64,000 nt of DNA from Actinomycetota bacterium (GCA_040880745.1 JBBDHX010000030.1:7494-71493); one strand, 5' to 3'. Shown: positions 20,560 to 35,455, numbered from the stretch's first letter. Program-made: numbers and translations. The notes: generated by a model from the sequence alone, not told the origin.

Positions 20560-21776
20560 ACGACCTCGATCGCGAACTCAAGGATCTGTTCGAAACCAAG
20601 GCACGGAGCGTCGATGCGGGCTTGGTGGCCCCGGGAGCCGTGTTGCGCCGTGGGCGTCGCCGCCAGATCGGCATCGTTGCCGGCGGAGCGCTCGGTGGCG
20701 TCGCAGCGCTCATCGTCGCCGGCTCCCTCGCGCTCGCGCTGCTCGGCGACGGCAACGATGAGGTGCCCTCGAACCAGACGCCGAACGGTCCCTACGGCGA
20801 CCGCACCGCCATCATCGGAGGCTTCGGGGTGCAGGCCCCCGAAGGTTGGACCTTGATCGACCAGTGGCCGCTGGCCTCCATCATCTCGGTGGGGTCGACG
20901 TCGTGCACGGGATCGTTCAGCGCGGTCGGCGACCCGGTGGATGGAGCCAGCGAGCCCACGGTCGCGCGGTCCACGGCGCTCGGCGAGGAGGAGTGCACGA
21001 CCGAGCCCGCGTCGTTGCCGGCGGGCATCCCCGTCCTGCAGCTCTCGACGTATGACCCAGGACTCATGACGCCGGTGTGTGACGTCTTCGACCAGGGCAC
21101 CGGTGGGACGCTCCCTGCGGACGGGGTCGCGGTGTTCGTGACGGCCTTCCCGGGGACGAAGACGCCCGAGCAGGTCCAGCAGGCGCTGGCGGAAGCCTGC
21201 CCTGTGGCACCCGACATCGATTCGATCGTGCAGGGACCGTCGGTGACGTACGTGACCGCGACGTTCGCGGGATCGGACTCGGACCCGGCGCTGCTCGGGG
21301 CTGCCGCGAACGTCACCGACCTGGGCGGGCACGACACGCGCGAGTTGGCGCCGAGTCCACTGTCAGGGCCCGCCTACGTGATCGGCTCGGGCGTCACGGG
21401 CGGCGAGCGGTGGCAGGTCTCCGCCGGGGTCGACTTCAGCGAGGGCTATCTCTCCACCGTGTGGATGACGAGCTTCCGAGCGGATGGCTCCGTCACCGGG
21501 ACCCTTGCCCAGCCGTGGAGCGGCGGGAACGCCCCGGTCGCGTCGGCGCTCGACGTGGGCGACGCCGCCGTTGCGATCGCACTCATCCCCACGGGAAGCG
21601 GCGAGCCCCATTGGAAGACCGACACGGGGGTGGATGTGCCGCTCGATGAAGCCCCGTTCCCGAGCTCGCTCGCGGCGCTGACGTTGAAGCCTGTTCTCGA
21701 TGGCACGGCCGCGTGGGCTGAGGTGCCGGACGTGTCGGGAGCCGTCGTGACGGAGCTGGCATCGCCGACGGGCTAG
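20556..21776 (+). CDS. putative anti-sigma factor / single-pass membrane protein with large extracytoplasmic domain
   Basis: Translationally coupled to the ECF sigma gene. Cytoplasmic N-terminus of about 45 aa, one TM (IGIVAGGALGGVAALIVAGSLALALL), then an extracytoplasmic domain. Confidence 0.5.
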   Translation: MNDLDRELKDLFETKARSVDAGLVAPGAVLRRGRRRQIGIVAGGALGGVAALIVAGSLALALLGDGNDEVPSNQTPNGPYGDRTAIIGGFGVQAPEGWTLIDQWPLASIISVGSTSCTGSFSAVGDPVDGASEPTVARSTALGEEECTTEPASLPAGIPVLQLSTYDPGLMTPVCDVFDQGTGGTLPADGVAVFVTAFPGTKTPEQVQQALAEACPVAPDIDSIVQGPSVTYVTATFAGSDSDPALLGAAANVTDLGGHDTRELAPSPLSGPAYVIGSGVTGGERWQVSAGVDFSEGYLSTVWMTSFRADGSVTGTLAQPWSGGNAPVASALDVGDAAVAIALIPTGSGEPHWKTDTGVDVPLDEAPFPSSLAALTLKPVLDGTAAWAEVPDVSGAVVTELASPTG

Positions 21777-22753
21777 ACCTGGTTCGCGCCGCCGAAGATC
21801 TCCGAAACGCTCGAGTCCTCGAAGACCGCGCGGAGGGCAGACGCGATCAGCGGGGCGATCGAGAGCACCCGGAGCTTCGAGAACTGCTTCTCCTCCGGGA
21901 TCGGGACGGTGTTGGTCACGATCACCTGCTCGATGGGTGCATCTTCGAGGTTCTGGCGTGCCTTGCCGCTGAAGATCGCGTGGGTCGCGCCGGCGTAGAT
22001 CGGACCGGCCCCCATCGCCGCCAGCGCGCGGGCTCCCATCGTGAGCGTCCCCGCGGTATCGATCATGTCGTCGACCACCACGCAGGGGCGCCCGTCCACC
22101 TCGCCGACCACCGCGCTCTCTTCGATCTTGTGCGCCTCCTTGCGGGAGCGGCGCTTGTAGAGGAACGCCAGGTCCGCGTGCAGGTACTCGCGGAGTTTCT
22201 CGGCGGTCTTGATGCGACCGGCATCCGGAGCGACCACCACCAGGTCCTCCCCCTGCAGCCCGAGCTGGTCCTTCAGGTAGTTCGCGAGCAGCGGCAGCGC
22301 CGTCAGGTGGTCGAAAGGCGCGTCGAAGTACCCCTGGATCTGTCCCGAGTGCAGGTCGACCGACACGACGCGGTCGGCGCCGGCGGTGGAGAGCAGGTCC
22401 GCCACGAGCTTCGCGCTGATCGGCTCGCGTGAGACCGCCTTCTTGTCCTGCCGCGAGTAGCCGTAGTACGGGACGACCGCGCTGATCCGTTTGGCGCTCG
22501 CACGCTTCATCGCGTCGATCATGATGAGTTGCTCCATGATCGCCTCGTTGACCGGCTCGTAGTGCGTCTGGACGACGAAGACATCCGCGCCGCGGACGGA
22601 CTCGTCGGCGCGGAAGTAGATCTCGCCGCTCGCGAAACGGCGGAGCTCACCTTGGCTCACGGGGATGCCGAGGTTGTCGGCGATCTCGTGCGCGAGCGTC
22701 GGGTGGATGGTGCCGGAGTAGAGCATCATCCGCTTCTTGGTGATGATCTCCAT
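21773..22753 (-). CDS. prs: ribose-phosphate pyrophosphokinase
   Basis: Begins MEIITKKRMMLYSGTIHPTLAHEIADNLGIP. PRPP-binding motif VVVDDMIDTAGT. Confidence 0.95.
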   Translation of the reverse strand: MEIITKKRMMLYSGTIHPTLAHEIADNLGIPVSQGELRRFASGEIYFRADESVRGADVFVVQTHYEPVNEAIMEQLIMIDAMKRASAKRISAVVPYYGYSRQDKKAVSREPISAKLVADLLSTAGADRVVSVDLHSGQIQGYFDAPFDHLTALPLLANYLKDQLGLQGEDLVVVAPDAGRIKTAEKLREYLHADLAFLYKRRSRKEAHKIEESAVVGEVDGRPCVVVDDMIDTAGTLTMGARALAAMGAGPIYAGATHAIFSGKARQNLEDAPIEQVIVTNTVPIPEEKQFSKLRVLSIAPLIASALRAVFEDSSVSEIFGGANQV

Positions 22754-22756
22754 CGC

Positions 22757-24184
22757 CTAAGCCCCCTTCGGCTTCCGCGTGCTCTTGGCGTCCTTGCGCG
22801 TGCGGTACCCCGGCACGGTTCGCTGATCCGATCGCTCGACGGCGAGCGCGCCGTCGGGAACGTCGCTCGTGATCACGGACCCCGCTCCCGTCACGGCTCC
22901 CTTCCCGATCCGCACCGGCGCCACCAGCATCGTATCCGACCCGATCCGGGCTCCGTCTCCGATCGAGGTCTCGTGTTTGGCGTACCCGTCGTAGTTCACG
23001 GTGATCGAACCCGCGCCGATGTTCACGTTCTCGCCGATGGAAGCGTCACCGACGTAGGACAGGTGCGGGATCTTCGACCCGCGGCCGATCGTGGCCTCCT
23101 TCATATCCACGAACGCCCCGGCGCGTGAGCGGTCGGCCATGTCCACACCGGGACGGAGCCGCACGAACGGCCCGACCTGGACGTCGCGCCCGATCCTGGA
23201 GCCGAGCACCACGGAGAACCAGACCTCGGAGCGGTCGCCCACGGTGGAGTCCTGTACCACGGTCGACGGTCCGATCGTGCAGCCGCGACCGATGACGCTC
23301 GCGCCTTGGATGAAGGAGTTCGGGTAGATGACCGAGTCCGGCCCGATCCGGACCCCGACATCGATATAGGTCGCTGAGGGATCGACCAGGGTGACCCCGC
23401 TGGCCATGTGCCCGGCGTTGATGCGGCCCCTGTACAGCCGTTCGACGGCAGCGAGGCCCTCGCGGGAGTTGAGCCCCATCACCCCAGCGGTGTCGCACAC
23501 GACGGCTTCGATGCGCTCCCCGGAGGCCAGCAACATCGGGACGACACGGTTCAGGTAGTACTCCCGCTGACGGTTGCTCCTGTCCAGCTTCGGCAGCGCG
23601 CGGAACAGGTCGGCTCGGCGGAAGACCATCCAATTGGTGGCGACCTCCGTGATAGCGCGGATCTCGGGTGTGGCGTCGACGCCCTCCACGACGTCGACCA
23701 CCCGGCCACGAGGGTCACGGACCACCCGGCCGTACCCGCCCGGTTGATGCAGGTCCGCCGACGCGATCGTGACAACGGCGGCGGTCCGACGGTGGCGGCG
23801 GAGCAGAGCGCGGATGTCCTCGGGCCGCACCGGATCGAGGTCGCCGTTGGCCACCAGGACCTCGTCCACCGTTCCCACCGCCCGCTTCGCCGCGAGCACC
23901 GCGTGGCCCGTCCCCAACTGCTCCGCCTGCGTCACGAACACGGGAGCCGGCGTGAGCCCCCACGAGCGAACGGCATCTCGGACGTCATCGCCGCCGTGCC
24001 CGATGACCACCACGATCTTCGCCGGCTTGGCCGCGAGGACGAGCTGCAGGACGTGCCAGAGGGCCGGTTCGCCGGCAACGGGATGCAGAACCTTCGGGGT
24101 CCGGGAACGGAGACGCTTGCCCTTGCCTGCGGCCAGGACGACCGCGGCGAGCGTGCGTGGAAGTCGCGCTGCCATGAGGGATCC
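22757..24184 (-). CDS. glmU: bifunctional UDP-N-acetylglucosamine pyrophosphorylase / glucosamine-1-phosphate N-acetyltransferase
   Basis: Begins MAARLPRTLAAVVLAAGKGKRLRS, a nucleotidyltransferase GxGTRx motif. C-terminal left-handed beta-helix hexapeptide repeats. Start at the internal ATG of ORF 22757..24448. Confidence 0.9.
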   Translation of the reverse strand, partial: GSLMAARLPRTLAAVVLAAGKGKRLRSRTPKVLHPVAGEPALWHVLQLVLAAKPAKIVVVIGHGGDDVRDAVRSWGLTPAPVFVTQAEQLGTGHAVLAAKRAVGTVDEVLVANGDLDPVRPEDIRALLRRHRRTAAVVTIASADLHQPGGYGRVVRDPRGRVVDVVEGVDATPEIRAITEVATNWMVFRRADLFRALPKLDRSNRQREYYLNRVVPMLLASGERIEAVVCDTAGVMGLNSREGLAAVERLYRGRINAGHMASGVTLVDPSATYIDVGVRIGPDSVIYPNSFIQGASVIGRGCTIGPSTVVQDSTVGDRSEVWFSVVLGSRIGRDVQVGPFVRLRPGVDMADRSRAGAFVDMKEATIGRGSKIPHLSYVGDASIGENVNIGAGSITVNYDGYAKHETSIGDGARIGSDTMLVAPVRIGKGAVTGAGSVITSDVPDGALAVERSDQRTVPGYRTRKDAKSTRKPKGA

Positions 24185-24223
24185 GTATCGTCCCACACGA
24201 GACTCGCCTCGAGAGGTTCCGGG

Positions 24224-24300
24224 GGGAGGGATCCCGAAGAGCCCGACTGCGATGGAAACCTTGACAAGTCCGAGGGCGTGTGTTGATCGGTGCACTCCGG
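24224..24300. repeat. R0: direct repeat of the tRNA-Gln 3-prime end (putative distal att site of the island)
   Basis: ggttccggggggagggatc is identical over 19 nt to the tRNA 3-prime end at 32470-32488. It is followed by the family motifs ccgaag, cttgacaag and cgtgtgt. Confidence 0.6.
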
Positions 24301-24302
24301 GC

Positions 24303-25568
24303 CTAGGCATCGGTGAGGGCTCGTGCCGCCACCGTTTCGGCGTGCTCGAAAGCTGGGGCCATCTGCTCGATCTCCACCTTGGGGATGTTGCGTTCGGCGG
24401 CCAACTCACTCCAGCGGCTCGTCGCGACCAGAACCTCCCGGAGCACATCGACGCTGTCCTGTTCGTTCAACCGGAAGAGGGGCGCCACGGACATGAGCGT
24501 CTCGACGCTCGCCGTCGTGTCCGCCTCATCGATGGCGGTCGCCAGGTGCTTTCGGCCCGCGGACGGATCCGGGTTCAAGTCGAATGCGGGCGAGAGTCTC
24601 CATGCGCTACCGCCTGCGTGGAGGAAGGCGTGGTTCCGCAGGTGGTCGTCCGTGTTGGAGATCAGGATCGTGAACGCTATCCGTCTCCATAGTTCACGCA
24701 GGTCTTCGGTCGCCCGGGGGGAGACTTCCTCGATCGCAGAGGCTATCTCCAGATAGCTCCCTACGGCGCCGTGCTCGGCCTCCAGCATCGTCATCGCACT
24801 CACGTAACCGATCCGCCGGTGCCCTTCGCGGTCGAAGCGATGAACGATGAGGACGCTGCGGTCAGCCACCCGCAACAACTCCGACCTGGGAACGAGGATG
24901 CCTGCCAGGAGGGCAAGATCGAGCGCCACACTCTCCCAGGCCGTCACATCCCACGGATCGAACCTGGAACTGGGGAACTTCGCGATGGCGATGCGGCCTT
25001 CGTTGTCGATCACATGGGCCTTCGGGCGTGCCCCGCCAAGGGAGCTTCCTCCGCGAAGCAGGTCACGAAGCTCCTCTTCCGTCTCCGCTTCAGACTCGAG
25101 GTGTTCGGCTGCAAGGAGCAGGGTCCCGAGATCGGTTGCGTGTGGAACCCCCGAGTCCTCGTCGCCCAGGAAGACGCCGGTATCTGGATCGCGGAAGCGG
25201 AGTGCCCCCTGGCGGAGGTCATCTCTGACACCGAGTAGGAAGTCGATCTCGCCGAGCGAGCGAGCCGTTCCGCCTTCAGCGGTCGCCCGGCGCCGTTCTT
25301 CTCGCATGATCAGGTTGCGTCCCCAGCGGTCGGGAGCTGCGTCAGCGAATGCCCTGAACATGGAGAGACCTACTGGCGTCTGGAGTCCGCCCTGTACCAA
25401 CGGCAAGGACGGGTCGAGCGCGTAGGCGTCTGGGCGGGTCAGGTAAGCGGGGTCGTATGAGAACGAGGCGGACTCTCGACCTCCCCGCCGATGAGAGAAC
25501 AGGGATCCGGCGAGAACGTCCTCGCCGTCGATCGCGACGACGACCTGGGTCGGTCCCGCAGCCATCAC
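24303..25568 (-). CDS. hipA: type II toxin HipA-like serine/threonine kinase
   Basis: HipA N-terminal and C-terminal domains (VAIDGEDVLAGSL..., catalytic-loop region NTDDHLRNHAF). 4-nt overlap with the upstream HTH gene. Confidence 0.8.
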   Translation of the reverse strand: MMAAGPTQVVVAIDGEDVLAGSLFSHRRGGRESASFSYDPAYLTRPDAYALDPSLPLVQGGLQTPVGLSMFRAFADAAPDRWGRNLIMREERRRATAEGGTARSLGEIDFLLGVRDDLRQGALRFRDPDTGVFLGDEDSGVPHATDLGTLLLAAEHLESEAETEEELRDLLRGGSSLGGARPKAHVIDNEGRIAIAKFPSSRFDPWDVTAWESVALDLALLAGILVPRSELLRVADRSVLIVHRFDREGHRRIGYVSAMTMLEAEHGAVGSYLEIASAIEEVSPRATEDLRELWRRIAFTILISNTDDHLRNHAFLHAGGSAWRLSPAFDLNPDPSAGRKHLATAIDEADTTASVETLMSVAPLFRLNEQDSVDVLREVLVATSRWSELAAERNIPKVEIEQMAPAFEHAETVAARALTDA

Positions 25569-25888
25569 GAAGACCGGGGTTGCCGCACGCGGGTTGGGAG
25601 CCTCTCATCGGTTCTGAGGCGCCCAACGTCGGTGGCGTACGGGTCAAGGGCGGCGGCCAACTTGTCCAGCACGCCGAGAGCGCGGGCTACTCGCAGAGTG
25701 TTCTCGAGGCTGGTCGAGCCTTCTCCATGCTCCAGGCTGCGAAGGGTCTTCACGTCGACGCCCGCACGGTCCGCGACCTGTGCAGCGGTGAGCCGTTGCA
25801 GCTTGCGCCATGTGACGATGTCCTCCCCCAGCTGGCGGAGTGCGCGCTGCACCGGGATCGGTATAGGCCTAGTCGCATTCCTTACCAT
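25565..25888 (-). CDS. hipB: HipB-like XRE-family HTH antitoxin
   Basis: HTH segment LTAAQVADRAGVDVKTLRSLEHGE. Coupled to hipA by an ATGA-type overlap. Confidence 0.7.
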   Translation of the reverse strand: MVRNATRPIPIPVQRALRQLGEDIVTWRKLQRLTAAQVADRAGVDVKTLRSLEHGEGSTSLENTLRVARALGVLDKLAAALDPYATDVGRLRTDERLPTRVRQPRSS

Positions 25889-25906
25889 AACAGGGAGGAT
25901 ACTACC

Positions 25907-25923
25907 GCTTAGACGCTCTAAGC
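25907..25923. promoter_or_regulatory. perfect palindrome gcttagaCGCtctaagc about 19 nt upstream of the hipB start; candidate HipB operator
   Basis: 7-3-7 inverted repeat in the lower-GC divergent promoter region between hipB and the lipoprotein gene. Confidence 0.4.
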
Positions 25924-26091
25924 GCCGATCTATTCCCTCTTATTCACGTTCGGGCGTCGTAGGACGCGCGACGTTCAGAGCGCACGCGCCGCCCACTTTC
26001 GAGATACAAGGATCGCAGGAATTCGATCACGCCGAGAAGATCCCCGAGGAAGGGGAGTCACAGGCTAACTCGGCCACGGCATGATCTAGCG

Positions 26092-26907
26092 ATGGGAAGG
26101 CCGGGCCTCCTACTCATCGTCTCATCCGCCGTGAGGAGCCGGGCCTTCGTGCTCAGTCTCACGGTGCTAGCCGCAGCTTGTACGTCAGCGCGACCAGAGG
26201 GCTCGCAGCCTGCCTCCTCCGATCCTCTATCGGCGGGAACGACCGAGTCCCCCGCGCCATCGGGTCAGTATGGCTTCCTCGGAGTGAGCCTCCGCGTCCG
26301 GTACGAGGGCACGATCTTCACGGAAGGAGCTCTCGCCTTCGTCGAGGTGCGTGACCCCTCAGGAGGGGTCGTCGGCAGGGATCGCTCGAAACAAGCGCGA
26401 GTCGTCCTGCCCCTCCAACTCGCCTCTGGTGACTACGAGGTGAGGACGTATCTCCGACCCTGTGTGGGGTCATGTGCCGCCCTCGATCCGCCACGAGACC
26501 AGTGCCGCGTCCCTGTCGAGATACCCGACGACGACGCCCCGAGGTTCGTATCCATCGAAGTGGTGGCGGTGGTCGGAGACTGCCACGTGTCCGACGATGG
26601 CGCCGCGGTTTTCGAGGCGAGCCTTCCCGGTTCGCCCTCGGTCGAAGTCGGCCAGCCGAACCCGATCAAGCTCTTCACGCACTGCGGTATCGACCAAGCG
26701 GCCGTTGACTTCGATGGGAACTGGTGGGACCTCGTCCCCGCGTCGGTGAAGGGCGAGTTCAACGAACCGTTCACCGAGGGCACGCTGACCCTGCTGCCGG
26801 AGGGCACTGCCACCTTCGACGCGCCACCCCAAGGTCTGGCAACCAAGGGCGCCGAGGCTCGGTTCGTCAGACACGAAGGTCCCATCCAGCTGTCTGGCTG
26901 CTACTGA
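26092..26907 (+). CDS. hypothetical lipoprotein
   Basis: Signal peptide with lipobox LAAAC; no recognisable domain. Confidence 0.6.
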   Translation: MGRPGLLLIVSSAVRSRAFVLSLTVLAAACTSARPEGSQPASSDPLSAGTTESPAPSGQYGFLGVSLRVRYEGTIFTEGALAFVEVRDPSGGVVGRDRSKQARVVLPLQLASGDYEVRTYLRPCVGSCAALDPPRDQCRVPVEIPDDDAPRFVSIEVVAVVGDCHVSDDGAAVFEASLPGSPSVEVGQPNPIKLFTHCGIDQAAVDFDGNWWDLVPASVKGEFNEPFTEGTLTLLPEGTATFDAPPQGLATKGAEARFVRHEGPIQLSGCY

Positions 26908-26949
26908 GTGACGGCCGCCGGGACGGGTCCTCAGACGGTCGAGCACTCG

Positions 26950-27120
26950 TTCCGGGGGGAGGAGGAACGGATCGACCGACACACGCTCACCTGCATGTCA
27001 AGTTTCGATCCCACCGTGCGCACGCCTTGACAAGCCCTAGAACCGTGTGTCGCTCCGATCCAGGGGTCAGGAATGCTTACCGGCGCCTACCGCTCACACC
27101 GCCACCCTTTCCGTCCGGAC
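26950..27120. repeat. R1: member of the roughly 160-nt structured repeat family that starts with the tRNA 3-prime core gttccggggggagg
   Basis: Shares gacacacgctcacctgcatgtcaagtt...cttgacaag...ccgtgtgtcg...gcttacc with R2, R3 and R4. Confidence 0.6.
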
Positions 27121-27441
27121 CACCATCGAGTCGGGTAGCGTTCCGGACGTGAGCCAGACTTCTCCGAACGCACAACTTTGCGGATCGTTGACCACCATCT
27201 TGTGCGAATGTGAGCGGGAGCGTCTTGAGGGTGCCGTTGGTAGCGCGCCGCTGGGAAGGTTGACGCGCCAGTGAATGTCCCGAGTCTCCAACCGAAGGCG
27301 TCCGTGCGGGAAGGGAACTCGACTTGCGGACACGGCGACGGGCGAAGCGTCGGTTCGCCGTGAAAGGAAGGCGCGGTCTGTGAGCCTCGTGCAGTGCGCG
27401 AGGTCGGCACCAAGGCGAGTGCTGACGTGTAAGAGAACCCC

Positions 27442-27954
27442 GTGATGGACGAAACCGGCCGGCCTCTCGCATCCAGCGGCTCCGTCGAAGTCCGCGTGCT
27501 GACCGCGCCGACCCGTGCCGAGATCGACCAGCTCGCGGAGATCTTCGACCGGTATCGCCTCCACTATGGCGAAGCTGCTGACGCGTTACGGACGGCGAGT
27601 TGGCTGGAAGAGAACATCAGCAGCGGCCGCCTCGAAGCCTTCGTAGCGGAAGACAAAGGTGCGTTCGTCGGCTTTGCCATCACGATGACCGTTCCCGCAT
27701 CGCTGCGGCTCGGCCACTTCTGGCAGATCAGAGATATCTTCGTCTTGCCGAGCCATCGTCGCCTTCGCGTCGGTCGCACGCTGCTCGACTTCATTCGCGC
27801 CGCCGCAGTCAGAGCGGGTGCCTTACGCTTGGTCTTGCAGACGGAGGCCGACAACACCCCCGCCCTTCGTCTCTATGCCGAGAGCGGCTACACGGCGGTC
27901 GAGGGCTATCGCTCACTGACGCTGCCACTGACGCCTGATTCCCGGGGGAGCTAA
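27442..27954 (+). CDS. GNAT family N-acetyltransferase
   Basis: Acetyl-CoA binding motif RRLRVGRTLLDFIRAAAVRAGALRLVL...LYAESGY. Confidence 0.75.
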   Translation: MMDETGRPLASSGSVEVRVLTAPTRAEIDQLAEIFDRYRLHYGEAADALRTASWLEENISSGRLEAFVAEDKGAFVGFAITMTVPASLRLGHFWQIRDIFVLPSHRRLRVGRTLLDFIRAAAVRAGALRLVLQTEADNTPALRLYAESGYTAVEGYRSLTLPLTPDSRGS

Positions 27955-28136
27955 CCGGATTTCGTGTTTCTACGATGGCCGGCGGATCTACGACTCCTAC
28001 TCGCGACCACCGATCTTCGACTCGTCGATCCAACCGTACGAAGATCAGACGCACAAGGATCGGGTGCCTTGGTCGACGCGATGTTGTACCTCGCGAAACT
28101 CGAACTCCGATGAGCCCCTAGGGCCGTGATGCATCG

Positions 28137-28330
28137 TTCGGGGGGGAGGATAGGGCAAGCACGCCACACACGCTGACCTGCATGTCAAGCTGCACGTTCA
28201 GGATCCGATTTGAACTTGACAGGGTTCCGACCGTGTGTCGGGCGCTCAGGGCTTTCTGGACGCTTACTCCCGTTTACCAGCCAACGCGGCCACACGGATG
28301 GCCTCCGCCGTGTCAAGTCGGCCCCAGGAG
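28137..28330. repeat. R2: structured repeat family member (gttcgggggggagga...)
   Basis: ccacacacgctgacctgcatgtcaagct...cttgacagg...ccgtgtgtcgggcgctcagg...gcttactcccgtttacc. Lies between the convergent GNAT and VOC genes. Confidence 0.6.
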
Positions 28331-28460
28331 CCAGGTTCCTCGCGGTCACCTGGGCAGTCGCTCAAGCGGTGCTGGTCGCGACGGTTCCTCCGTCCGGCGA
28401 GCGGGCTGTTGGCCCGGCCCTGCACCGTGAGGTTGAGCCGCGGTCGGGGTGTCGGCGGGA

Positions 28461-28880
28461 TCAAGGGACGCCGGGACGGTGAGGCGCGTCGATCACCGGA
28501 TCGGGCGCATGCCATACGGCCTCGACGTTGTTCTGATGCAAGTCGTTCACGAATGCGGCGTAGTACCGCTCGGAGTACTGCGTCCACACGCCGGGCTCGC
28601 CCCGGATCGTGGCACCGTTCGCGACCGCGGCCTCGAAGAACGCGTCTACCTCCTCCCGACCCTCGGCGGAGAATGCAACATGAGCCGCCGTGGTCGCGGG
28701 CTCCCCCTGGCAGATCGTGAAGTCGTCCAGGTCCTCGGCCCCGTAGCTGACACAGTCGTCCTGAGCGTGAAGTTCTTCGTAGCCGAGTGGGGCGAGGGCT
28801 GCCGTATAGAACCGTCGGCTCGCGTCCAGGTCAGCCACGACGAAGAGCACGTGATCGACGATCACGCGCCGAACGCTCAT
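28461..28880 (-). CDS. VOC (glyoxalase/bleomycin resistance/dioxygenase) family protein
   Basis: Begins VDHVLFVVADLDASRRFYTAALAPLGY; paired beta-alpha-beta-beta-beta modules. Confidence 0.75.
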   Translation of the reverse strand: MSVRRVIVDHVLFVVADLDASRRFYTAALAPLGYEELHAQDDCVSYGAEDLDDFTICQGEPATTAAHVAFSAEGREEVDAFFEAAVANGATIRGEPGVWTQYSERYYAAFVNDLHQNNVEAVWHAPDPVIDAPHRPGVP

Positions 28881-28948
28881 CAGTCAACGCTATCAACACC
28901 GCGCATCCGACTCCAGCAACTTGACGTGCCAGAATGCCCTCTCAGAGT

Positions 28949-29110
28949 TGTTCCGGGGGGGAGGAAGTCCGAAGCAAGCGACACACGACCTCCTCGGTGT
29001 GAAGTTGGCAGTGGGACGCTAGCCACGACCCACGCCCGTGTGTCGAACGTTCAGCTGGTCTCGAACCGCTTACTGCCGCTTACCGGCAGCAACCTCCCCA
29101 CGTAAGAACC
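28949..29110. repeat. R3: structured repeat family member
   Basis: gttccgggggggaggaagtccgaagcaagcgacacacg...ccgtgtgtcgaacg...gcttactgccgcttacc, about 80 percent identical to R4. Lies upstream of the ECF sigma gene at 29210. Confidence 0.6.
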
Positions 29111-29209
29111 ATGCCGTGTCAAGGAGGATCGGTCCAGCGCCCTCGCTCGTGCGGAGGCTCCTGAGCCTGCCTCGTTAACCTTTCGAGGGCCTTCGGGCTC
29201 GTATGAGGC

Positions 29210-29701
29210 GTGAAGATGAGCGACCGCAGTGTGGTGAAGAACGAACGCAACTATGTGGCCCTGTACCGGACCACCGGCGTTGCGCTGTGGCGTGCCATCT
29301 ACGTGTACAGCGGGGGCTCGCGGGACATCGCCGACGATGCCGTCGCCGAGGCGTTCGCAAGAGCGATCCAACACGACGACGCTATTCGACGGCCTGAATC
29401 CTGGCTCTATCGCACGGCCTTTCACGTCGCGGCTGCTGAGCTTCGACAGAAGCGGTTTCTCGTTGACGCCCCCGAGCGTGCTGGGGACGAGGCGGTGGAC
29501 TTGACCGACCTCACGAAGGCTCTGCGCAGGCTGTCGCCGAATCAGCGTGCAGCCGTCTACCTCTTCTACCAAGCGGACCTCCCCATTCGAGAAGTGGCGG
29601 CTCTGATGGGGACATCGGTCACGGCCGTCAAAGTCCATCTACATCGGGGGAGACACCGGTTGCGTGACCTGCTGGGAAGTGAGGAGGCGGGAGATGACTG
29701 A
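29210..29701 (+). CDS. ECF sigma factor
   Basis: Region 2 (DDAVAEAFARAIQH) and region 4 (LPIREVAALMGTSVTAVKVHLHRGRHRLR). Stop overlaps the next gene. Confidence 0.85.
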   Translation: MKMSDRSVVKNERNYVALYRTTGVALWRAIYVYSGGSRDIADDAVAEAFARAIQHDDAIRRPESWLYRTAFHVAAAELRQKRFLVDAPERAGDEAVDLTDLTKALRRLSPNQRAAVYLFYQADLPIREVAALMGTSVTAVKVHLHRGRHRLRDLLGSEEAGDD

Positions 29702-30290
29702 GCGTTGGCTAGTGGAGATGCAGAAGGTCGACCGTTTGGAGCCGATCCCCGACCTATTGGCGAGGGCAGAAGTTGGTCCCTCGCTCGCCGAACCCAGCCT
29801 TCGTCCGGGGCGACGGGTAGCGGCGGGGCTCGTCGCGCTGGTGATCGCCATCGCGGGAGGGTGGCTGGCATTCAGCACTCTCAACGACTCGGGCGGGCGA
29901 CAGGCGACGGACGACGGCTCCTCCAGCGTCGTCGGATGGCCAGATGCCTCCGTCGCGGAGGCTCAGAAGGTTCAAGACAAAGTGGACAGCGGTGCGCCCG
30001 AGGTGCAGTGGCGTACAGACGCTGCTGCGGCTGCTCTACGCTATGGGCAGACGGTACTCGGATGGCCTTCCCCGTTGGCCGGGGTGAACGCAACGGACGA
30101 TCCCGATGTCGTTGTCGTTTCCCTGCACGGGCCGGACGCCTCGTGCGCGGCTCCCTGTTCTGGCTCCGTGTCACCAAAGTCCATCGCGATACTGACCTTG
30201 CAGCGACTCGTGCGCGAAGGTGACGGCGGAATCTGGAGCGTTACCTCGGTGGCGGACCAAGATGCCTTTCCGACCCAGCCTGCAGGCTGA
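29695..30290 (+). CDS. putative anti-sigma factor (single-pass membrane protein)
   Basis: ATGA overlap with the sigma gene; cytoplasmic N-terminus, a TM (AAGLVALVIAIAGGWLAF), and an extracytoplasmic domain with Cys pairs. Confidence 0.5.
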
Positions 30291-30348
30291 GCGTCCTCGG
30301 AGCCGACCGTCGTTCGGAGCCGTCTGCAGGGAGAACAGGCGGTTCGTT

Positions 30349-30555
30349 CGGTTCCGGGGGGAGGAAGGCCGAAGCAGGCGACACACGATCTCTTCGGTGT
30401 CAAGTTGGCGTTGGGAACTTGACACGCTTCGACCCGTGTGTAGAGCGCTCAGAGGGTTACGAGTCGCTTACTCCTGCTTACCGACGAAACACGACCCCAC
30501 CCCGGTCGTGAGCTGACACGTCAAGTGGCACACACACCCGCGCTCACGAGGATCA
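30349..30555. repeat. R4: structured repeat family member, with the clearest nested inverted repeats
   Basis: ggttccggggggaggaaggCCGAAGcaggcGACACACGatctCTTCGGTGTCAAGTTggcgttgggAACTTGACACgcttcgaccCGTGTGTag...gcttactcctgcttacc. Lies between two convergent anti-sigma genes. Confidence 0.6.
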
Positions 30556-31875
30556 TTCGATCGTGTTTGGTACCACCACTCGCGCCCAGGTCGCCCCATC
30601 CCAGTGCTCGACTAGAGGCATCGAGTGCCGCCCCCATTCCACTCCCACGATCCAAGCATCGTCCGCCGCAGCGACGAAGATCGACGACGCCGTTACATCG
30701 AAGTCGGTCGGGGGCACGATCAGGTCGCAGGTCGCCTCGGTGCAGCTTGCGACTGCCAGCGACGAGGTAGCCGGACTGCCAACCACCCATGCGGGGCCAG
30801 AAGCCGTGCCTCCGACTGCTTGGGCCGACCAAAGCGAGAGCCCGTTCACCTCGACCATCTCCCAAGTCCTACCGCTCCACCTGCGCATGAGCGCGTGCAG
30901 GTGGTGGTCCGACGCCCTGTAGTCCCCCAATGCCCAGACCGCGCCCGTGCCGTCAGCACCCATCCCCCAGATGATGTTGAGAGATCGGCTGGGGTCGGGT
31001 GCGGCCACGACGTCCCACGCTCGGCCATCCCAATGCATCGTCAACGTCGATCCTTCTCCGCTGCCCTGAGCGAGATCGACGGAATACCCACCGACCCATA
31101 CGTCGGTCGAGGACAGCGCGACGATCCCGGTGAGGTAGTTGTCTCTTGTCCCAGGATTCGGCGGCTGCATCACGGTCCAAGTGCTTCCGTCGAAATGCGC
31201 GACGGCGGACGAGAGACCTCGGGAGTTAGCTCCGATCAAGGGACCTGTCCGAGTGCCTGCCAGCCACACATCGCTTGGTCCGAGCGCCGAGAGCGCACCG
31301 TAGTTACCACGAGGCAGCGGCTCCGTCGTCCACTCCGCTCCGTTCCAGTGGAGGAGACCCCCGTAGCCAAGTGCCCAGGCGTCATCTGGCGAGGTGGCGT
31401 CCACGGCGATCAAGCGGCCGACATCGGGGACAGTCGTCGTCGTCCAGGAAGCGCCATCCCAATGAACGACCAGCGAGTGATCGTTCCCACCGTCGCCATG
31501 CGTCTCACCGACCGCCCATATGTCGGTCCCCCCCGCTCCGTCGATGGCTGCAAGCGATGAGCCTGGATGAGCGGCGACCTGGCCGTCACCCGGCCCGAAT
31601 CCAGGTCCAGGCTGCACGCCGTTCGCCTGGGAGGCTCGTGGACCCGTTTCCTGAGGAACCGTTCGATTGCTTAGGACCGCAGCGATCCCAAGAGAGACTA
31701 AGACGACGCCCGCGAGCGCGATCCATGCGCGATACCAACGAGCCGGAATGCGTTCTTGCCCGCGCACCAACTCGGAGGAGGCATGGAAGCGACGCAGTTC
31801 GGCGTCGGCGTCGATAGCCCAACCGCTATCAACCTCACGAAGCCATGATGCGACCAGTCGATTGGGCTCGTTCAT
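30553..31875 (-). CDS. anti-sigma factor with six-bladed beta-propeller-like HWDGxxW repeat ectodomain
   Basis: The N-terminus has an anti-sigma-like cytoplasmic segment plus a TM (WIALAGVVLVSLGIAAVL). Six repeats of about 45 aa are each centred on (H/R)W(D/N/S)G..W. 4-nt overlap with the upstream sigma gene. Confidence 0.55.
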   Translation of the reverse strand: MNEPNRLVASWLREVDSGWAIDADAELRRFHASSELVRGQERIPARWYRAWIALAGVVLVSLGIAAVLSNRTVPQETGPRASQANGVQPGPGFGPGDGQVAAHPGSSLAAIDGAGGTDIWAVGETHGDGGNDHSLVVHWDGASWTTTTVPDVGRLIAVDATSPDDAWALGYGGLLHWNGAEWTTEPLPRGNYGALSALGPSDVWLAGTRTGPLIGANSRGLSSAVAHFDGSTWTVMQPPNPGTRDNYLTGIVALSSTDVWVGGYSVDLAQGSGEGSTLTMHWDGRAWDVVAAPDPSRSLNIIWGMGADGTGAVWALGDYRASDHHLHALMRRWSGRTWEMVEVNGLSLWSAQAVGGTASGPAWVVGSPATSSLAVASCTEATCDLIVPPTDFDVTASSIFVAAADDAWIVGVEWGRHSMPLVEHWDGATWARVVVPNTIE

Positions 31876-32390
31876 AAGTGCGCCTCCTCGATCCCCTCAT
31901 CGAGAAGCAGCCGTAGTCGCCGCCGAGCCCGGGCTGTATGAGTCCTGACGCTCCCAGAGGGGATGTGCAGAATCCTGGCCACTTCTCGCGAGTCCATACC
32001 CGCGTAGTCGGTCAGAACGATGCAGGTGCGTTGGCGATCCGTAAGCGCTTTGAGCGCATCGACGATCACCAACCGGGTGGTCATCTCCTCACCCTCGAAG
32101 GGATGCCCCGCGTCGCGGAGGGATTCACTTGGATCGTTCGAAACCTTCTTACGCCGTCGAGATTCGGATCGAGCGAGATTCAGGCCGATGCGCATGACGG
32201 AGTTCCTGACGTGCTCTGGGGATTGGTAGCGGTCCCATCGAGCCCATGCGCGGGCGAACGCTTCTTGTGCCAACTCGATGCCATCCTCTCGGTTACCAAC
32301 CACCAACCCGAGGGACCTTGCAACAGTCGAGAACTGGGCTCGGAAGAGCTCGTCGAAGTCCTCCGTGCGGTTCCCTCCTCTACCGATCTG
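31872..32390 (-). CDS. ECF sigma factor; annotated ORF start at 32306 is a TTG and region 2.1 lies upstream of it with no canonical start
   Basis: Region 2.2-2.4 (GNREDGIELAQEAFARAWARW) and region 4 (LTDRQRTCIVLTDYAGMDSREVARILHIPSGSVRTHTARARRRL). The in-frame upstream segment TEDFDELFRAQFSTVARSLG looks like region 2.1, but it runs into a TGA at 32391-32393 with no ATG or GTG. Confidence 0.7.
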   Translation of the reverse strand, partial: QIGRGGNRTEDFDELFRAQFSTVARSLGLVVGNREDGIELAQEAFARAWARWDRYQSPEHVRNSVMRIGLNLARSESRRRKKVSNDPSESLRDAGHPFEGEEMTTRLVIVDALKALTDRQRTCIVLTDYAGMDSREVARILHIPSGSVRTHTARARRRLRLLLDEGIEEAHL

Positions 32391-32471
32391 TCATGTATAC
32401 GCATGGAGCGGCAACAGTGCACACAACACCGGGTCAATCCGTTCGACCCGGACGTCAGCCTCCGAGTGGGT

Positions 32472-32542
32472 TCCGGGGGGAGGGATCGAACCTCCATCTC
32501 AGGCTCCAAAGGCCCGCGTCTTGCCGTTAGACGACCCCGGAG
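32472..32542 (-). tRNA. tRNA-Gln(UUG)
   Basis: Manual fold: acceptor TCCGGGG/CCCCGGA; D arm GTCT-AACGGCA-AGAC; anticodon stem CGGGC/GCCTG with loop CTTTGGA (anticodon TTG); variable loop AGATG; T arm GGAGG-TTCGATC-CCTCC; discriminator A. Total length is 72 nt; CC is encoded after the discriminator. Confidence 0.7.
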
Positions 32543-33402
32543 GGCCGGTCCATCGTAGCCGGGGGCCCGGAGGTGACGAGGGCATCCGGCAGCGCCAGGG
32601 CGACCCGATCCGCGATACCGAGATGGGCGGCGAGCCCCACGACGGTGGGTCCGCTGCCCGTCATCACGACGCCCGCCGCACCGGCCTCCAGGAGCGCGGC
32701 GCGGGCGATGTCCACCTCGGGATGACGGCGCGCGACACCCGCTTCGAGATCGTCGGAAAGCGCCGAGGCGAGCACGTCGATGTTGCCGGTCTCCACGGCA
32801 GCGATCAGCGCCCCGGGGTCGGGGCCGGTCCGTGGATCCTCGTCCCACCAGGCGTAGGCATCCGGCGTGCTGACACCGAAAGGCTGGGGCACGACGACCC
32901 AGTGCGTCGTCACCGCGTGCACGGGGATCAGTCGCTCACCGCGACCCTCGGCGATGACGGGGCCGCCGTGCAACAACGCCGGCACGTCCGAGCCGATGGA
33001 AGCCGAAGCGTCGAGCAATCCTGCGGGGTCCAGGCCATGCATGGTGGCCAGCGCACGCAGGACCGCGGCGGCGTCCGCGCTGCCGCCCCCCATCCCCGCG
33101 CCGACCGGGATGCGCTTGTCGATCCTGATCGCGACCGGCGCCATGACGCCGGCCACCCGCTCGAAAACCGTCACCGCACGGGCGCACAGCGACTCTCCTC
33201 CCGCGCGATCCAGATCACCCGACCGCGGGCCCCCCACCTTGACGGACGTCACGTCCGCCGGCGAGACGGTCACCACGTCATGCAGGCTCACCGGCATCAC
33301 GAGCGTCTGGATCTCGTGGAAGCCGTCGTCGCGGCGACCCAGGACGCGCAGGAAGACGTTGAGCTTCGCGTAGGCCCGCCCGGTGATCGGATCCATCAGC
33401 CG
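32527..33402 (-). CDS. ispE: 4-diphosphocytidyl-2-C-methyl-D-erythritol kinase
   Basis: GHMP kinase motifs (KRIPVGAGMGGGSADAAAVL; MTGSGPTVVGL). Start at MDPITG inside ORF 32527..34473. The last 5 codons overlap the tRNA 5-prime end. Confidence 0.85.
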   Translation of the reverse strand, partial: RLMDPITGRAYAKLNVFLRVLGRRDDGFHEIQTLVMPVSLHDVVTVSPADVTSVKVGGPRSGDLDRAGGESLCARAVTVFERVAGVMAPVAIRIDKRIPVGAGMGGGSADAAAVLRALATMHGLDPAGLLDASASIGSDVPALLHGGPVIAEGRGERLIPVHAVTTHWVVVPQPFGVSTPDAYAWWDEDPRTGPDPGALIAAVETGNIDVLASALSDDLEAGVARRHPEVDIARAALLEAGAAGVVMTGSGPTVVGLAAHLGIADRVALALPDALVTSGPPATMDRPSGVV

Positions 33403-34229
33403 AGGGACTCCACGATGCGCGCGTACGCGGCGAGATCGAGTTCCTCGGGGCGCGCCGCCGGGTCGATGCCCGCTGTGGCGAGGATGGCCTCCGCCTCCTC
33501 TGCGGTGACCCCCAGCCGCCGAACGGCGTTGCGCATGGTCTTGCGCCGTTGGGCGAAGGCGGTATCGACCACACGCCACAGAGCCGCCTCGTCCACGTCT
33601 ACGGGCGGTGCGGTGAGACGGTCGAGCCGCACCACCACCGACCCCACGCCGGGGCGCGGCCAGAAGACCTCGGGCGGCACGCTGCGGACGATCCGAGCGG
33701 AGGCGCGGTAGGCGACGCGCAGGCTGAGCGCGCCGAACGCACCACGGTCGGCTCCCGTCGGGGAGGCGACCAGGCGCTCGCCCACCTCGCGTTGGAGCAT
33801 CACCACCACCCTCGTGACCGGCGCCCGCTCCAACAGGTCGATCACGATCGAGGTCCCGACGTTGTACGGGAGGTTGCCGCAGGCGATCCACGGTCCCTCC
33901 CCGAGCGCGCCTGCCCAATCCAAGGCGGTGGCGTCGGCGTGCAGGACTCGCACCACCGGGTGGCCGGCCACGGTCTCGCGCAGACCCGCGACCAGGCGGC
34001 GGTCGAACTCGATCGCCAGGATCTCGGCTGCCCCCGCGTCCACCAGCGCCGCGGTGAGCGACCCGAAGCCGGCCCCGATCTCCACGACGTGGTCCCCGGG
34101 TCCGACGCCGGCGTCGCGAGCGATCGCGCGCGCGAGGTTGGGGTCGAGCAAGAAGTTCTGGCCGAGGGCCTTGGACGGACGGACGCCGTGGCGGGCAGCC
34201 AGCTCGCGGACATCGACGTGCACGGGCAC
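33396..34229 (-). CDS. rsmA: 16S rRNA (adenine1518/1519-N6)-dimethyltransferase
   Basis: ALGQNFLLDPN..., VVEIGAGFGSLT and NLPYNVGT motifs. Confidence 0.9.
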   Translation of the reverse strand: MPVHVDVRELAARHGVRPSKALGQNFLLDPNLARAIARDAGVGPGDHVVEIGAGFGSLTAALVDAGAAEILAIEFDRRLVAGLRETVAGHPVVRVLHADATALDWAGALGEGPWIACGNLPYNVGTSIVIDLLERAPVTRVVVMLQREVGERLVASPTGADRGAFGALSLRVAYRASARIVRSVPPEVFWPRPGVGSVVVRLDRLTAPPVDVDEAALWRVVDTAFAQRRKTMRNAVRRLGVTAEEAEAILATAGIDPAARPEELDLAAYARIVESLG

Positions 34230-34553
34230 ACGGTAGCCGGACGGAGGGATCGAAACAGGTGCGGTTCCGGGTGAGGAGCGACGCGCGATCGCGCCGACCA
34301 GATCCCCATGGCCGAGAGGAGCCTCGGCGCCTCGCCGACCCGGTTGCTGCGCACCTTCCCCGACGCGGCAGCCTGATCGATGGTGCGGCCGAGGTGTCGC
34401 CGGTTCGATCCGCGGAAGCTTGCGCTCCGCCGATCCGGTGTCCGCCTTCCCAAACGAACGCCGTGCCGGTCACTCACCACCCGGAACCAGCGCGAACCGT
34501 AGCAAACCCTCAACCCTCACTGCAACCTTGAGAACGAACAGGCGTTCGATGCC

Positions 34554-35348
34554 TCACGGGAGGCCGACGAACGCAGCGCGCGCGTTCTCCGCGGTCCTTC
34601 GCACCAGATCGTCGACCGTCGTTCCGCGCACGCGTGCGATCGCATCGAGCGTGAGCACGATGTGCTCGGGTGCGTTGTCCCTGCCGCGACGAGATTGCGG
34701 CGAGAGGTACGGAGCATCCGTCTCCACGAGCAGCCGATCCGCGGGGAGGGCGGCAGCCGCCTGCCGGAGATGCTCGTTCTTGGGGTAGGTCACGTTCCCG
34801 GCGAAGGAAAGCCACCAACCCCGTGCGGCGCACTCGTTCGCGATGGCCACGTCACCACTGAAACAGTGGATCACGACCCGTTCGGCGTGCTGGGTCTCGA
34901 GCATGGACAGGGTGTCCTCCCATGCGTCGCGGACGTGCACCACCATGGGTTTGCCGGACTCGTTGGACATCGCGACATGGGCCGCCAACGCGCGCCGCTG
35001 GTCCTCGGCCGGCGAGTGCATCCGGAAGTAGTCCAGGCCACACTCCCCCACGGCGACCACACGAGGGTCGTGGAGCAACTCCTCGATCGCGCTCGAGGCC
35101 TCCGCGTCGAACGTCGCGGCGTCGTGAGGATGCACCCCCGCCGTGGCGAAGACACCCGGCAGCGAATCGGCCATCTCGAGCGACCGGCGGCTGCTCGCAA
35201 CGTCGACCCCGACGCAGATGATCCGATCGACGCCGGCGGCCCGCGCGGTCTCGACCGCCACTGCAGGTTCGTCCTGCATCAGGAAGAGGTGGCAGTGGGT
35301 ATCCACCGCCCCCCCCTGCACCCGTAGTTCAAGGTTGTCGTCGCTCAA
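34554..35348 (-). CDS. tatD: TatD family metal-dependent hydrolase
   Basis: DTHCHL, GECGLDY and ETDAPYL signature motifs. Confidence 0.9.
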   Translation of the reverse strand: MSDDNLELRVQGGAVDTHCHLFLMQDEPAVAVETARAAGVDRIICVGVDVASSRRSLEMADSLPGVFATAGVHPHDAATFDAEASSAIEELLHDPRVVAVGECGLDYFRMHSPAEDQRRALAAHVAMSNESGKPMVVHVRDAWEDTLSMLETQHAERVVIHCFSGDVAIANECAARGWWLSFAGNVTYPKNEHLRQAAAALPADRLLVETDAPYLSPQSRRGRDNAPEHIVLTLDAIARVRGTTVDDLVRRTAENARAAFVGLP

Positions 35349-35455
35349 CGGCGGCGAGCCTACACGGGTCTTGAGATACGGTCGAGGCGGGGGGCTTCAC
35401 GTGAAACATGGATCCGCGAACCCTCAGGATCGACTCGACATGTGACGGTCGGGGC

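Follow-up and report, generated by a model that had tools for sequence, protein, structure and literature searches.

Introduction

The recombination site carried by integron cassettes, attC, is laid out as R″ (RYYYAAC)-L″...L′-R′ (GTTRRRY), with crossover in R′ at the base of a hairpin whose arms keep their complementarity. To our knowledge, integrons have not been reported in Actinomycetota, the phylum of the bacterium studied here. Serial insertion at tRNA genes is well known but is usually tied to elements that carry an integrase. Tandem accretion at att sites has been described for cis-mobilizable elements (CIMEs), at the att sites of ICEs (integrative and conjugative elements) and of IMEs (integrative and mobilizable elements) (PMC5704250), and for tycheposons, the islands of Prochlorococcus (bioRxiv 10.1101/2020.12.28.424599); further, the part of the account of Candidatus Actinomarinales on which we draw reports small cassettes that are added at tRNAs and marked by direct repeats of tRNA fragments (PMC7771536). 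Here, we analyze an island of ~8.3 kb that lies between glmU and a tRNA-Gln gene in a 64,000-nt stretch of DNA from an uncultured soil bacterium of the Actinomycetota (GCA_040880745.1, JBBDHX010000030.1:7494-71493; this whole stretch is referred to as the window) and that is divided by five copies of a repeat, R0 to R4, each consisting of a copy of the tRNA-Gln 3′ end (the core) and a module that is conserved in other genomes. On balance, we lean toward reading the island as an array of five small (0.8-2.7 kb) non-autonomous integrative cassettes that piled up through successive site-specific recombination events at the tRNA-Gln 3′ end. In open-access papers, we came across no account of the module.

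Results

Copies of the tRNA-Gln 3′ end and a conserved module recur at five boundaries

The single tRNA gene of the window, tRNA-Gln(ttg), lies at 32469-32541 on the minus strand (ARAGORN; Rfam tRNA, 61.4 bits). The plus-strand sequence GTTCCGGGGGGAGG is the reverse complement of its final 14-15 nt and spans the 3′ strand of the T-stem, the 3′ strand of the acceptor stem, and the discriminator. Copies of GTTCCGGGGGGAGG are found at 24215 (R0), 26949 (R1), 28136 (R2, with one mismatch), 28950 (R3, with one extra G), and 30350 (R4), all five between glmU and tRNA-Gln and in the orientation that the sequence has in the tRNA-Gln gene. When up to two mismatches were allowed, the core gave 7 matches against 1.8 expected, and 0 of 100 shuffles reached 7. 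An earlier reading of the window made from the sequence alone (the sequence-only reading) had placed five same-orientation copies correctly to within 1-9 nt and had given the right intervals from R0 to the tRNA (2.7, 1.2, 0.8, 1.4, and 2.1 kb); the tRNA-Gln 3′ core with which it began each repeat does recur, but the strand sense has to be turned around, as the repeats begin with the reverse complement of the tRNA 3′ end. The GC content at 24-32.5 kb is 0.63-0.65 compared with ~0.70 in the flanks.

A full module of ~150-190 nt stands at four of the core copies (R1-R4), and the module at R0 is truncated. To the right of the core, the order in R1-R4 is a spacer of 14-16 nt, CGACACACG, 10 nt, TGTCAAG, and a loop, followed by CTTGACA, 10-11 nt, CGTGTGTCG, ~22 nt, and GCTTAC-N4-GCTTACC. 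The positions in the window are as follows.

24215-24285, plus strand: R0, the most tRNA-distal junction, adjoining glmU; 19 nt copied from the tRNA 3′ end at 24215-24233, CTTGACA at 24260-24266, CGTGTGT at 24277-24283; left arm and direct-repeat pair absent
26949-27125, plus strand: R1; core 26949-26962, CGACACACG 26977-26985, TGTCAAG 26996-27002, CTTGACA 27026-27032, CGTGTGTCG 27044-27052, GCTTAC/GCCTAC 27075-27090
28136-28317, plus strand: R2; core 28136-28149, CCACACACG 28164-28172, TGTCAAG 28183-28189, CTTGACA 28215-28221, CGTGTGTCG 28232-28240, GCTTAC/GTTTAC 28262-28277, third TGTCAAG box 28311-28317
28950-29123, plus strand: R3; core 28950-28964, CGACACACG 28979-28987, degenerate inner repeats TGTGAAG 28998-29004 and CTAGCCA 29019-29025, CGTGTGTCG 29037-29045, GCTTAC twice 29068-29083, third TGTCAAG box 29117-29123
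30350-30519, plus strand: R4; core 30350-30364, CGACACACG 30379-30387, TGTCAAG 30398-30404, CTTGACA 30418-30424, CGTGTGTAG 30435-30443, GCTTAC twice 30466-30481, GTCAAG box near 30514
32469-32483, minus strand: 3′ end of tRNA-Gln, proposed primary attachment site (attB or attL core)

The pattern ACACACG-N40..65-CGTGTGT occurs 4 times in the window against 0.01 expected, and the full nested pattern is present in R1, R2, and R4 against 0 expected; all nine TGTCAAG sequences in the window (2.6 expected) lie inside or beside modules. The GCTTAC direct mini-repeat pointed out in the sequence-only reading is borne out in R1-R4 in the form GCTTAC-N4-G(C/T)(C/T)TAC. The ordered motifs given there are confirmed, with R0 as a truncated copy and a degenerate inner repeat in R3; CCGAAG...CTTCGG, offered as a family motif, occurs only in R3 and R4 and is not kept across the family. 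R3 and R4 are 81% identical, close to the ~80% first given, and the grouping of R1 with R2 as a second subtype was oversimplified, because the two are members of different family-wide subtypes.

Seen in the reading direction of the tRNA, the module stands upstream of each tRNA fragment, in place of the tRNA body. This geometry is that of the far junction (attR) of an element inserted into a tRNA 3′ end. The module itself is, by inspection, not similar to the tRNA body or to the region upstream of the tRNA, and the idea that it is a remnant of either was dropped. The core was also considered, and rejected, as a tRNA-primer site of the primer-binding-site kind: complementarity to the tRNA is trivial for a partial copy of its gene, and no reverse transcriptase is present.

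The module is found at the same locus in other genomes

We searched metagenomes with the pattern ACACACG-N10-TGTCAAG-N10..40-CTTGACA, from which the tRNA core was left out, and obtained 79 stretches; ~25 of them are true relatives, all on soil contigs with a GC content of 0.64-0.69, and the other matches are unrelated, being one conserved gut Clostridia sequence and low-GC chance matches. With a slightly looser pattern, species-representative genomes gave 26 stretches, of which those in 9 Actinomycetota metagenome-assembled genomes (MAGs) are true relatives. Beyond the window, the module is thus carried by ~34 loci (25 metagenome contigs and 9 MAGs), and the feature is real and recurrent. Long-read MAGs with the module include CAWGFM010000004.1, CAVVAK010000004.1, CAWIUW010000005.1, CAVXJL010000002.1, and CAWHTI010000013.1. 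In nearly all true relatives, the core precedes CGACACACG by a constant distance; L089, whose left part is missing, lacks the core, and L090 and L101 have a degenerate one.

The check proposed in the sequence-only reading, whether copies elsewhere also abut a tRNA gene, had a positive outcome: an intact tRNA-Gln(ttg) is reached in seven loci (L011, L027, L045, L068, L081, L087, and L090), with side and strand matching the window. In many loci, prs/glmU lies on the opposite side, and where a contig extends far enough, the module is located in the interval from glmU to tRNA-Gln. At no other tRNA or locus did the three public collections yield a true copy, although the search pattern did not contain the core; a dispersed tRNA-derived miniature inverted-repeat transposable element (MITE) or short interspersed nuclear element (SINE), as once suggested, is not supported, since every true copy found is at the glmU/tRNA-Gln locus.

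Arrays of two or three modules are present in L011, L027, L029, L039, and L073, and many genomes have a single module with one gene between glmU and the tRNA. An empty site, in which tRNA-Gln is followed directly by glmU, was seen on ten contigs of a relative (L128-L137) whose IspE is 64% identical; it is known from a different lineage than that of the window. Among the relatives, L138 has a scar that consists of the core and no module, L140 likewise has no module, and L139 has the core and only the left half of a module. The IspE of the window itself was found on one contig only, which left no strain with an identical IspE for comparison, and the lineages looked up via IspE have an empty site or lack a full module. 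The proposal of serial acquisition, in which every event leaves an att-like copy plus a conserved element, agrees with the empty site, with the arrays of one to three modules elsewhere, and with cassette similarity that begins at the core.

We note a rearranged or diverged variant at ~1477-1620 of L027 (oriented copy), with the layout core-N13-CTTGACA-N45-CGTGTCAAG-N25-GCTTAT-N4-GCTTGC. It was missed by the profile search, which indicates that the family is more diverse than the 40 copies collected. The gut sequence mentioned above is a near-invariant stretch of ~48 nt, ACACACGACGGGGCATTTGTCAAGCCCCAACGTGTGCGCTGCTTGACAAG, upstream of an open reading frame (ORF) in a gut Clostridia-like organism with a GC content of ~0.62. 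It is found in L001-L004, L006, L008, L009, and ~40 more human-gut metagenome loci, looks like a promoter/operator region, and is a chance match to the pattern, unrelated to the module.

Conservation begins at the core, is one-sided, and keeps a fixed phasing

The DNA identity of prs/glmU between the window and the related loci is 70-78%, and that of the modules is 82-93%. R1 is 86-93% identical to copies in at least eight other loci (including L017, L029, L045, L013, L052, L087, and L105), with a similarity that extends to ~27125, and R2 is 82-88% identical to a dozen copies elsewhere; the modules of the window resemble each other less than R1 and R2 resemble copies in other genomes. Module similarity begins at the core and has a sharp end that lies between a few bases and ~45 nt past the direct-repeat pair. 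When L027 is compared with L073, the left sides are unrelated, and identity sets in with the first base of the core. Further, in 38 distinct flanks to the left of the core, nothing is conserved and none of the motifs of the module occurs, so that conservation is confined strictly to one side. At the tRNA 3′ end, identity to the tRNA fades raggedly, as expected if an element must restore the tRNA.

In 29 of 31 copies, 14 nt separate the core from the arm, the N10 spacer is kept in 30 of 31, and the right spacer measures 10 or 11 nt. Only the loop varies in length: it is bimodal, at 14 or 23-26 nt, and the two classes differ by about one helical turn. A third GTCAAG box stands ~34 nt past the direct repeats in ~10 of 33 copies, including R2, R3, and R4. 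The spacers between the outer and inner repeats are not complementary, and the left spacer, CTGACCTGCA, is itself conserved. Judged from the sequence, the fixed phasing, the inverted bipartite pair, and the direct pair with a 10-bp period would suit a nucleoprotein complex on double-stranded DNA.

The sequence-only reading had also proposed a folded element or structured non-coding RNA (ncRNA), and this did not hold up. In an alignment of 36 distinct module copies, the nested inverted repeats contain 0 compensatory pairs, and one-sided changes lead to mismatches at two pairs of the outer stem (in 7/36 and 6/36 copies). Paired cells amount to 91.6% compared with 92.3% in shuffles, the covariation score is 0.016 compared with a shuffled mean of 0.024, and the RNAalifold covariation term is +0.4. 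Folds of single copies, as plus-strand DNA or minus-strand RNA, have ordinary z-scores (+1.5 to -2.5), and the tRNA is the sole match to Rfam, both at the gathering threshold and at E ≤ 1. The lack of compensatory change in 36 copies indicates that the module is not selected as an RNA or hairpin fold, and, taken together with the non-complementary spacers, that its arms are conserved sequence motifs. Such motifs at fixed spacing would fit protein binding on double-stranded DNA.

A proposed mechanism of cassette stacking at the tRNA-Gln 3′ end

Stacking of integrative cassettes would work as follows. The attachment site of a free cassette would have two parts, a core and a one-sided module. The 14-15-bp copy of the tRNA 3′ end would serve as the crossover core and would restore the tRNA upon insertion, and the ~150-190-bp module, present on one side only, would be the protein-binding arm of the attachment site, used as double-stranded DNA. 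This arm would be made up of two inverted bipartite sites (CGACACACG-N10-TGTCAAG), the direct repeats GCTTAC-N4-GCTTACC with their 10-bp period, and, in many copies, one more TGTCAAG box, each at a set distance from the core in the manner of a lambda- or L5-type attP arm. Once a cassette is inserted, its module and the displaced core would stay at its tRNA-distal end, and a further insertion at the intact tRNA would shift the older cassettes toward glmU. We propose that, with the cassettes named E1 to E5 from glmU to the tRNA, R0 would then be the most ancient junction, and E5 the cassette added last. The recombinase would not be encoded by the cassettes and would act in trans.

Several observations weigh against this mechanism. 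First, no recombinase came to light. The box II motif of tyrosine recombinases is absent from every frame of the window and of the ~45 related loci, and no copy elsewhere was seen to abut an integrase gene, a check that the sequence-only reading had proposed; the catalytic motif of serine recombinases is likewise absent from the six frames of the window and loci. A Pfam search of the cargo, the flanks, and 35 further ORFs of the window returned housekeeping and cargo functions only, with no integrase or transposase. Viral contigs were scanned five times, for the full palindrome, the core with the arm, the right half, the core with the direct repeat, and the core by itself, and gave nothing related, the matches being low-GC promoter-like chance matches or coding sequence, and no recombinase was found in the viral contigs that carry the core. 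An autonomous parent element with the module was found neither in the genome and metagenome scans nor in the viral ones, although loci of 8-20 kb are too short to prove that none exists, and no excised circles were seen among short metagenome contigs. A possible link to Xer/dif, raised by the resemblance of TGTCAAG to a XerD arm, was dropped as speculation when the actinobacterial dif consensus could not be confirmed and the sequence led to unrelated papers only.

Second, the module and the cargo to its right are separable. L028 and L084 have cargo that is 92% identical beside different modules, and L027 and L090 likewise share cargo beside different modules. The first gene after modules of the R1 subtype varies from GNAT in the window to a DinB-like gene in L045, L052, and L105 and a methyltransferase gene in L087; no DinB-like remnant follows R1 in the window. 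Third, the modules of L105, L048, and L039b are chimeric, each combining a left half from one subtype with a right half from a second, R0 and the modules of L089 and L139 are truncated, and the six sets of breakpoints are clustered at the inner-left TGTCAAG. This cluster could mean that strand exchange also, or instead, takes place inside the module; it may also reflect exchange in the longest common identical stretch or breakage provoked by the palindrome. Fourth, a one-armed attP is unusual among arm-binding tyrosine integrases.

Other explanations of the repeats

It is unlikely that there is no dedicated system and that the glmU/tRNA-Gln gap is a hot spot of homologous recombination, in which modules and housekeeping genes act as anchors and the tRNA fragments are copied relics of a few old integrations. 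Chimeric modules with breakpoints in common identical stretches would be expected from such exchange, the separability of module and cargo and the lack of a recombinase agree with it, and the near-identical strains L045 and L052 part at a point that is not a clean core. However, the modules keep the tRNA core at a fixed distance, the similarity of common cassettes begins exactly at the core, and the left side of the core is never conserved. Anchors also need no helically phased inverted bipartite motifs, and the module is kept far better than would be expected of neutral non-coding DNA at 70-78% housekeeping identity.

We regard it as quite improbable that the module is a folded single-strand recombination site, similar to integron attC or to attP(+) of CTX phage, with tRNA-Gln as the primary site of an integron analogue. 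In this model, the outer stem CGACACACG/CGTGTGTCG, an unpaired bubble of 10 x 10-11 nt, the inner stem TGTCAAG/CTTGACA, and a variable terminal loop would be bound at both stems by a tyrosine recombinase, which would exchange one strand inside the module. The succession of stem, unpaired central spacer, stem, and variable loop does match attC as it is generally drawn, and the integron-sized cassettes, their unrelated cargo, the module subtypes common to unrelated cargo, and the toxin-antitoxin cassette would all be at home in such a system. The breakpoints of the three chimeric and three truncated modules at the inner-left TGTCAAG would also be accounted for, but deletion provoked by a hairpin, or exchange in the longest common identical stretch, ACCTGCATGTCAAG, would be expected to give such a cluster too. 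The model is contradicted by the alignment of 36 copies, in which neither stem shows compensatory change and both of the mismatched pairs described above arise from one-sided changes, and by unexceptional folding energies, with z from +0.7 to -2.5; it leaves the tRNA core, 14-16 nt outside the palindrome, unexplained, the junction at the real tRNA consists of the core only, and no IntI-like gene is present.

It is very unlikely that the module is a regulatory DNA element (operator, promoter, or insulator) that is bound by a host or cassette regulator, for example an extracytoplasmic function (ECF) sigma factor, and carried along with the cassette. The conserved palindromic boxes are operator-like, pairs of ECF sigma and anti-sigma factors recur as cargo, and R3 lies upstream of one such pair. 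However, most cassettes with a module have no sigma factor or regulator, and the module is fixed in position to the tRNA core rather than to gene starts, from which both distance and orientation vary. The TTGACA motifs that the sequence-only reading had considered as -35 boxes find no support in that role: 0 sigma-70-like promoter sites were found at 24000-32700.

A structured ncRNA or RNA regulatory element (processing signal, terminator, or stabilizer), with a 3′ end resembling that of a tRNA and copied along with every gene module, is hard to credit. The inverted repeats can be drawn as nested hairpins, and cargo on the minus strand has the module at the gene 3′ end, followed by the tRNA acceptor-like end. 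Against this stand the absence of compensatory pairs, a covariation score below the shuffled mean, the positive RNAalifold term, and the lack of an Rfam match for the module; further, no terminator-like site was found within the modules, the orientation of cargo relative to the module is mixed, and a change in loop length by about one helical turn is a phasing trait of double-stranded DNA. Finally, a transposon-like unit bounded by terminal inverted repeats, in which the 26-bp inverted sites are the ends of head-to-tail elements, or a palindromic MITE that targets the tRNA end, is highly improbable: the inverted bipartite sites do resemble terminal inverted repeats and the abutted arms a circle junction, but there is no transposase in any locus, neither the window nor the three collections contain a copy remote from the tRNA-Gln core, the unit beside the tRNA has no right-hand repeat, and a MITE at a tRNA would not put cargo between itself and the tRNA.

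Cargo of the cassettes and surroundings of the island

The cassettes of the window are 0.8-2.7 kb long and hold 1-3 genes each; 4 of these are plus-strand genes and 5 minus-strand genes. Pfam assignments are marked.

24286-26948: cassette E1
24303-25568, minus strand: HipA-like toxin (Pfam)
25565-25888, minus strand: helix-turn-helix (HTH)/HipB-like protein (Pfam)
26092-26907, plus strand: 271-aa protein without a Pfam match
27126-28135: cassette E2
27442-27954, plus strand: GNAT acetyltransferase (Pfam)
28318-28949: cassette E3
28461-28880, minus strand: glyoxalase/VOC-family protein (Pfam)
29124-30349: cassette E4
29210-29701, plus strand: ECF sigma factor (Pfam)
29664-30290, plus strand: 208-aa protein, likely an anti-sigma factor, overlapping the ECF sigma gene
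30520-32468: cassette E5, adjoining the tRNA
30553-31875, minus strand: 440-aa protein
31872-32390, minus strand: ECF sigma factor (Pfam)

At the DNA level (blastn), the cargo genes of the window have zero matches in any related locus. The ECF sigma factors are the only cargo of the window with homologues in other islands at the protein level, at 29-49% identity. Pairs of an ECF sigma factor with a putative anti-sigma factor are cargo in L011 (6975-8517), L029 (~2430-2735), L044 (2575-4219), and L098 (1858-4250), where the coordinates are those of oriented copies and may differ from those of the stored loci. As read from translations, without a profile search, the cargo elsewhere comprises lipoproteins, nucleotide-cyclase-like regulators, a methyltransferase, cupins, an alpha/beta hydrolase, and ECF sigma pairs. 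We note that the HipA/HTH (HipB-like) toxin-antitoxin pair of the window is in the cassette furthest from the tRNA, which recalls the stabilizing toxin-antitoxin cassettes of chromosomal integrons.

In one lineage (L139, L028, L046, L100, and L084), an operon for an aerobic-type molybdopterin dehydrogenase (cox/xdh-like small, medium, and large subunits) lies between tRNA-Gln and glmU; in L139 (ena:ERZ25039492 contig_37399), precomputed Pfam annotation places a cox operon inside the island. The operon is bounded by the tRNA-core repeat with a full or half module, and its position inside the island shows that cargo can reach a size of several kilobases.

The island lies between the following chromosomal genes, identified by Pfam and, on the left, also by blastn synteny.

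21773-22753, minus strand: prs
22757-24175, minus strand: glmU
32545-36991, minus strand: ispE, rsmA, tatD, and metG, without a recombinase

Directly downstream of tRNA-Gln and inside E5, a terminator-like hairpin with a 9-bp stem and a T-rich tail is present at 32429-32451 on the minus strand. If cassettes do insert at the tRNA end, every newcomer would need to bring the terminator of the tRNA. To the left of prs, a long ORF at 19036-20559 (plus strand) has ECF-type sigma regions 2 and 4 toward its C terminus, and a 491-aa ORF at 20301-21776 (plus strand) has no Pfam match; the gene calls there are crude, and the frames may be wrong. The GC content is also lowered at 15000-18000 and 54000-56000 of the window (0.64-0.66 compared with a background of ~0.70), where there is no module, tRNA, or copy of the core.

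Discussion

At this locus, integron-sized cassettes with unrelated cargo are each tagged by a strongly conserved site of ~150 bp, and no recombinase is nearby. If the cassettes are mobile, they would represent a second, independent solution to modular gene capture, with ECF sigma/anti-sigma pairs, toxin-antitoxin genes, and small enzymes as the traded goods. The module offers a handle on how “additive” tRNA genomic islands grow where no integrase is visible, in that it is a defined DNA site with a fixed motif architecture, and its motifs, together with the core, can serve as a search key for the missing recombinase and for arrays in metagenomes. One may go further and suppose an integron-equivalent platform for gene capture in Actinomycetota, with the tRNA-Gln 3′ end as the primary site, the ~150-190-bp module as a cassette-borne site that can be joined to arbitrary genes, and an unlinked, host-encoded recombinase that inserts, excises, and shuffles them; we entertain this tentatively and consider it doubtful.

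In their usual anatomy, attP sites of the lambda and L5 type resemble the core and module in several ways: a short core identical to the tRNA 3′ end is joined to an arm of 100-200 bp with paired direct repeats of ~10-bp period, and sites for bending or accessory proteins stand in fixed phase in between. The island differs from them in having one conserved arm only, large inverted bipartite repeats that separate the core from the direct repeats, and no adjacent integrase gene.

As far as the Actinomarinales account extends, its additive islands (PMC7771536) and the tycheposons (bioRxiv 10.1101/2020.12.28.424599) share with the island described here the use of tRNA genes as hot spots for small added cassettes. 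The portion of the former account that we draw on does not mention a conserved module beside the tRNA fragments (PMC7771536). Tycheposons encode a tyrosine or serine recombinase of their own, often along with replication genes, unlike the module cassettes; the array does not qualify as a tycheposon, because there is no recombinase of its own in the window or in the related loci.

CIMEs (PMC5704250) come closer. They are bounded by att sites, have no genes for integration or transfer, stand in tandem at a tRNA 3′ end, and depend on the recombinase of another element. In the island, repeats of 14-19 nt from the tRNA-Gln 3′ end are found at every boundary, and the cassettes have no integration or transfer genes of their own; descriptively the array fits a CIME array, but nothing in it points to an ICE or IME as its ancestor. 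CIMEs derive from ICEs or IMEs by decay, are mobilized in cis by a related ICE or IME whose integrase recognizes their att sites, and usually measure many kilobases and contain gene remnants, whereas the cassettes here are tiny, carry unrelated cargo and a well-kept 150-bp module, and are accompanied by no ICE, IME, or integrase remnant in the ~45 loci.

The comparison with integrons drawn in the sequence-only reading was fair in its logic, and it had rightly called the elements non-canonical as attC sites and noted the lack of intI, which is not among the cargo. As in integron arrays and clusters of attC sites lacking integrases (CALINs), the cassettes are small (0.8-3 kb, 1-3 genes) and carry unrelated cargo, including a toxin-antitoxin cassette; as in integron arrays, each cassette has an imperfect palindrome of ~150 bp, the final bases are those of the primary-site core, and site subtypes are common to unrelated cargo and better conserved than host genes; and, as in CALINs, the array has no recombinase gene. 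Unlike in integrons, the primary site is a tRNA 3′ end and not an attI site beside intI. Integron cassettes consist of one or a few promoterless genes, mostly in one orientation; the cassettes here fit in size and gene number, but the orientation of their cargo is mixed. The two features that define an integron, IntI and the anatomy of attC, were not found: R and L boxes (GTTRRRY) are absent, the arms keep their sequence but show no upkeep of complementarity, and 14-16 bp separate the palindrome from the core, which is outside it. Overall, the island would belong neither to the integrons nor to the CIMEs and is best filed among the tRNA-targeted site-specific integrative elements, as integrase-less cassettes with a common one-sided att arm, and, by analogy, the systems that would appear closest to it in logic are the integron cassette array and CIME-type accretion at a tRNA att site.

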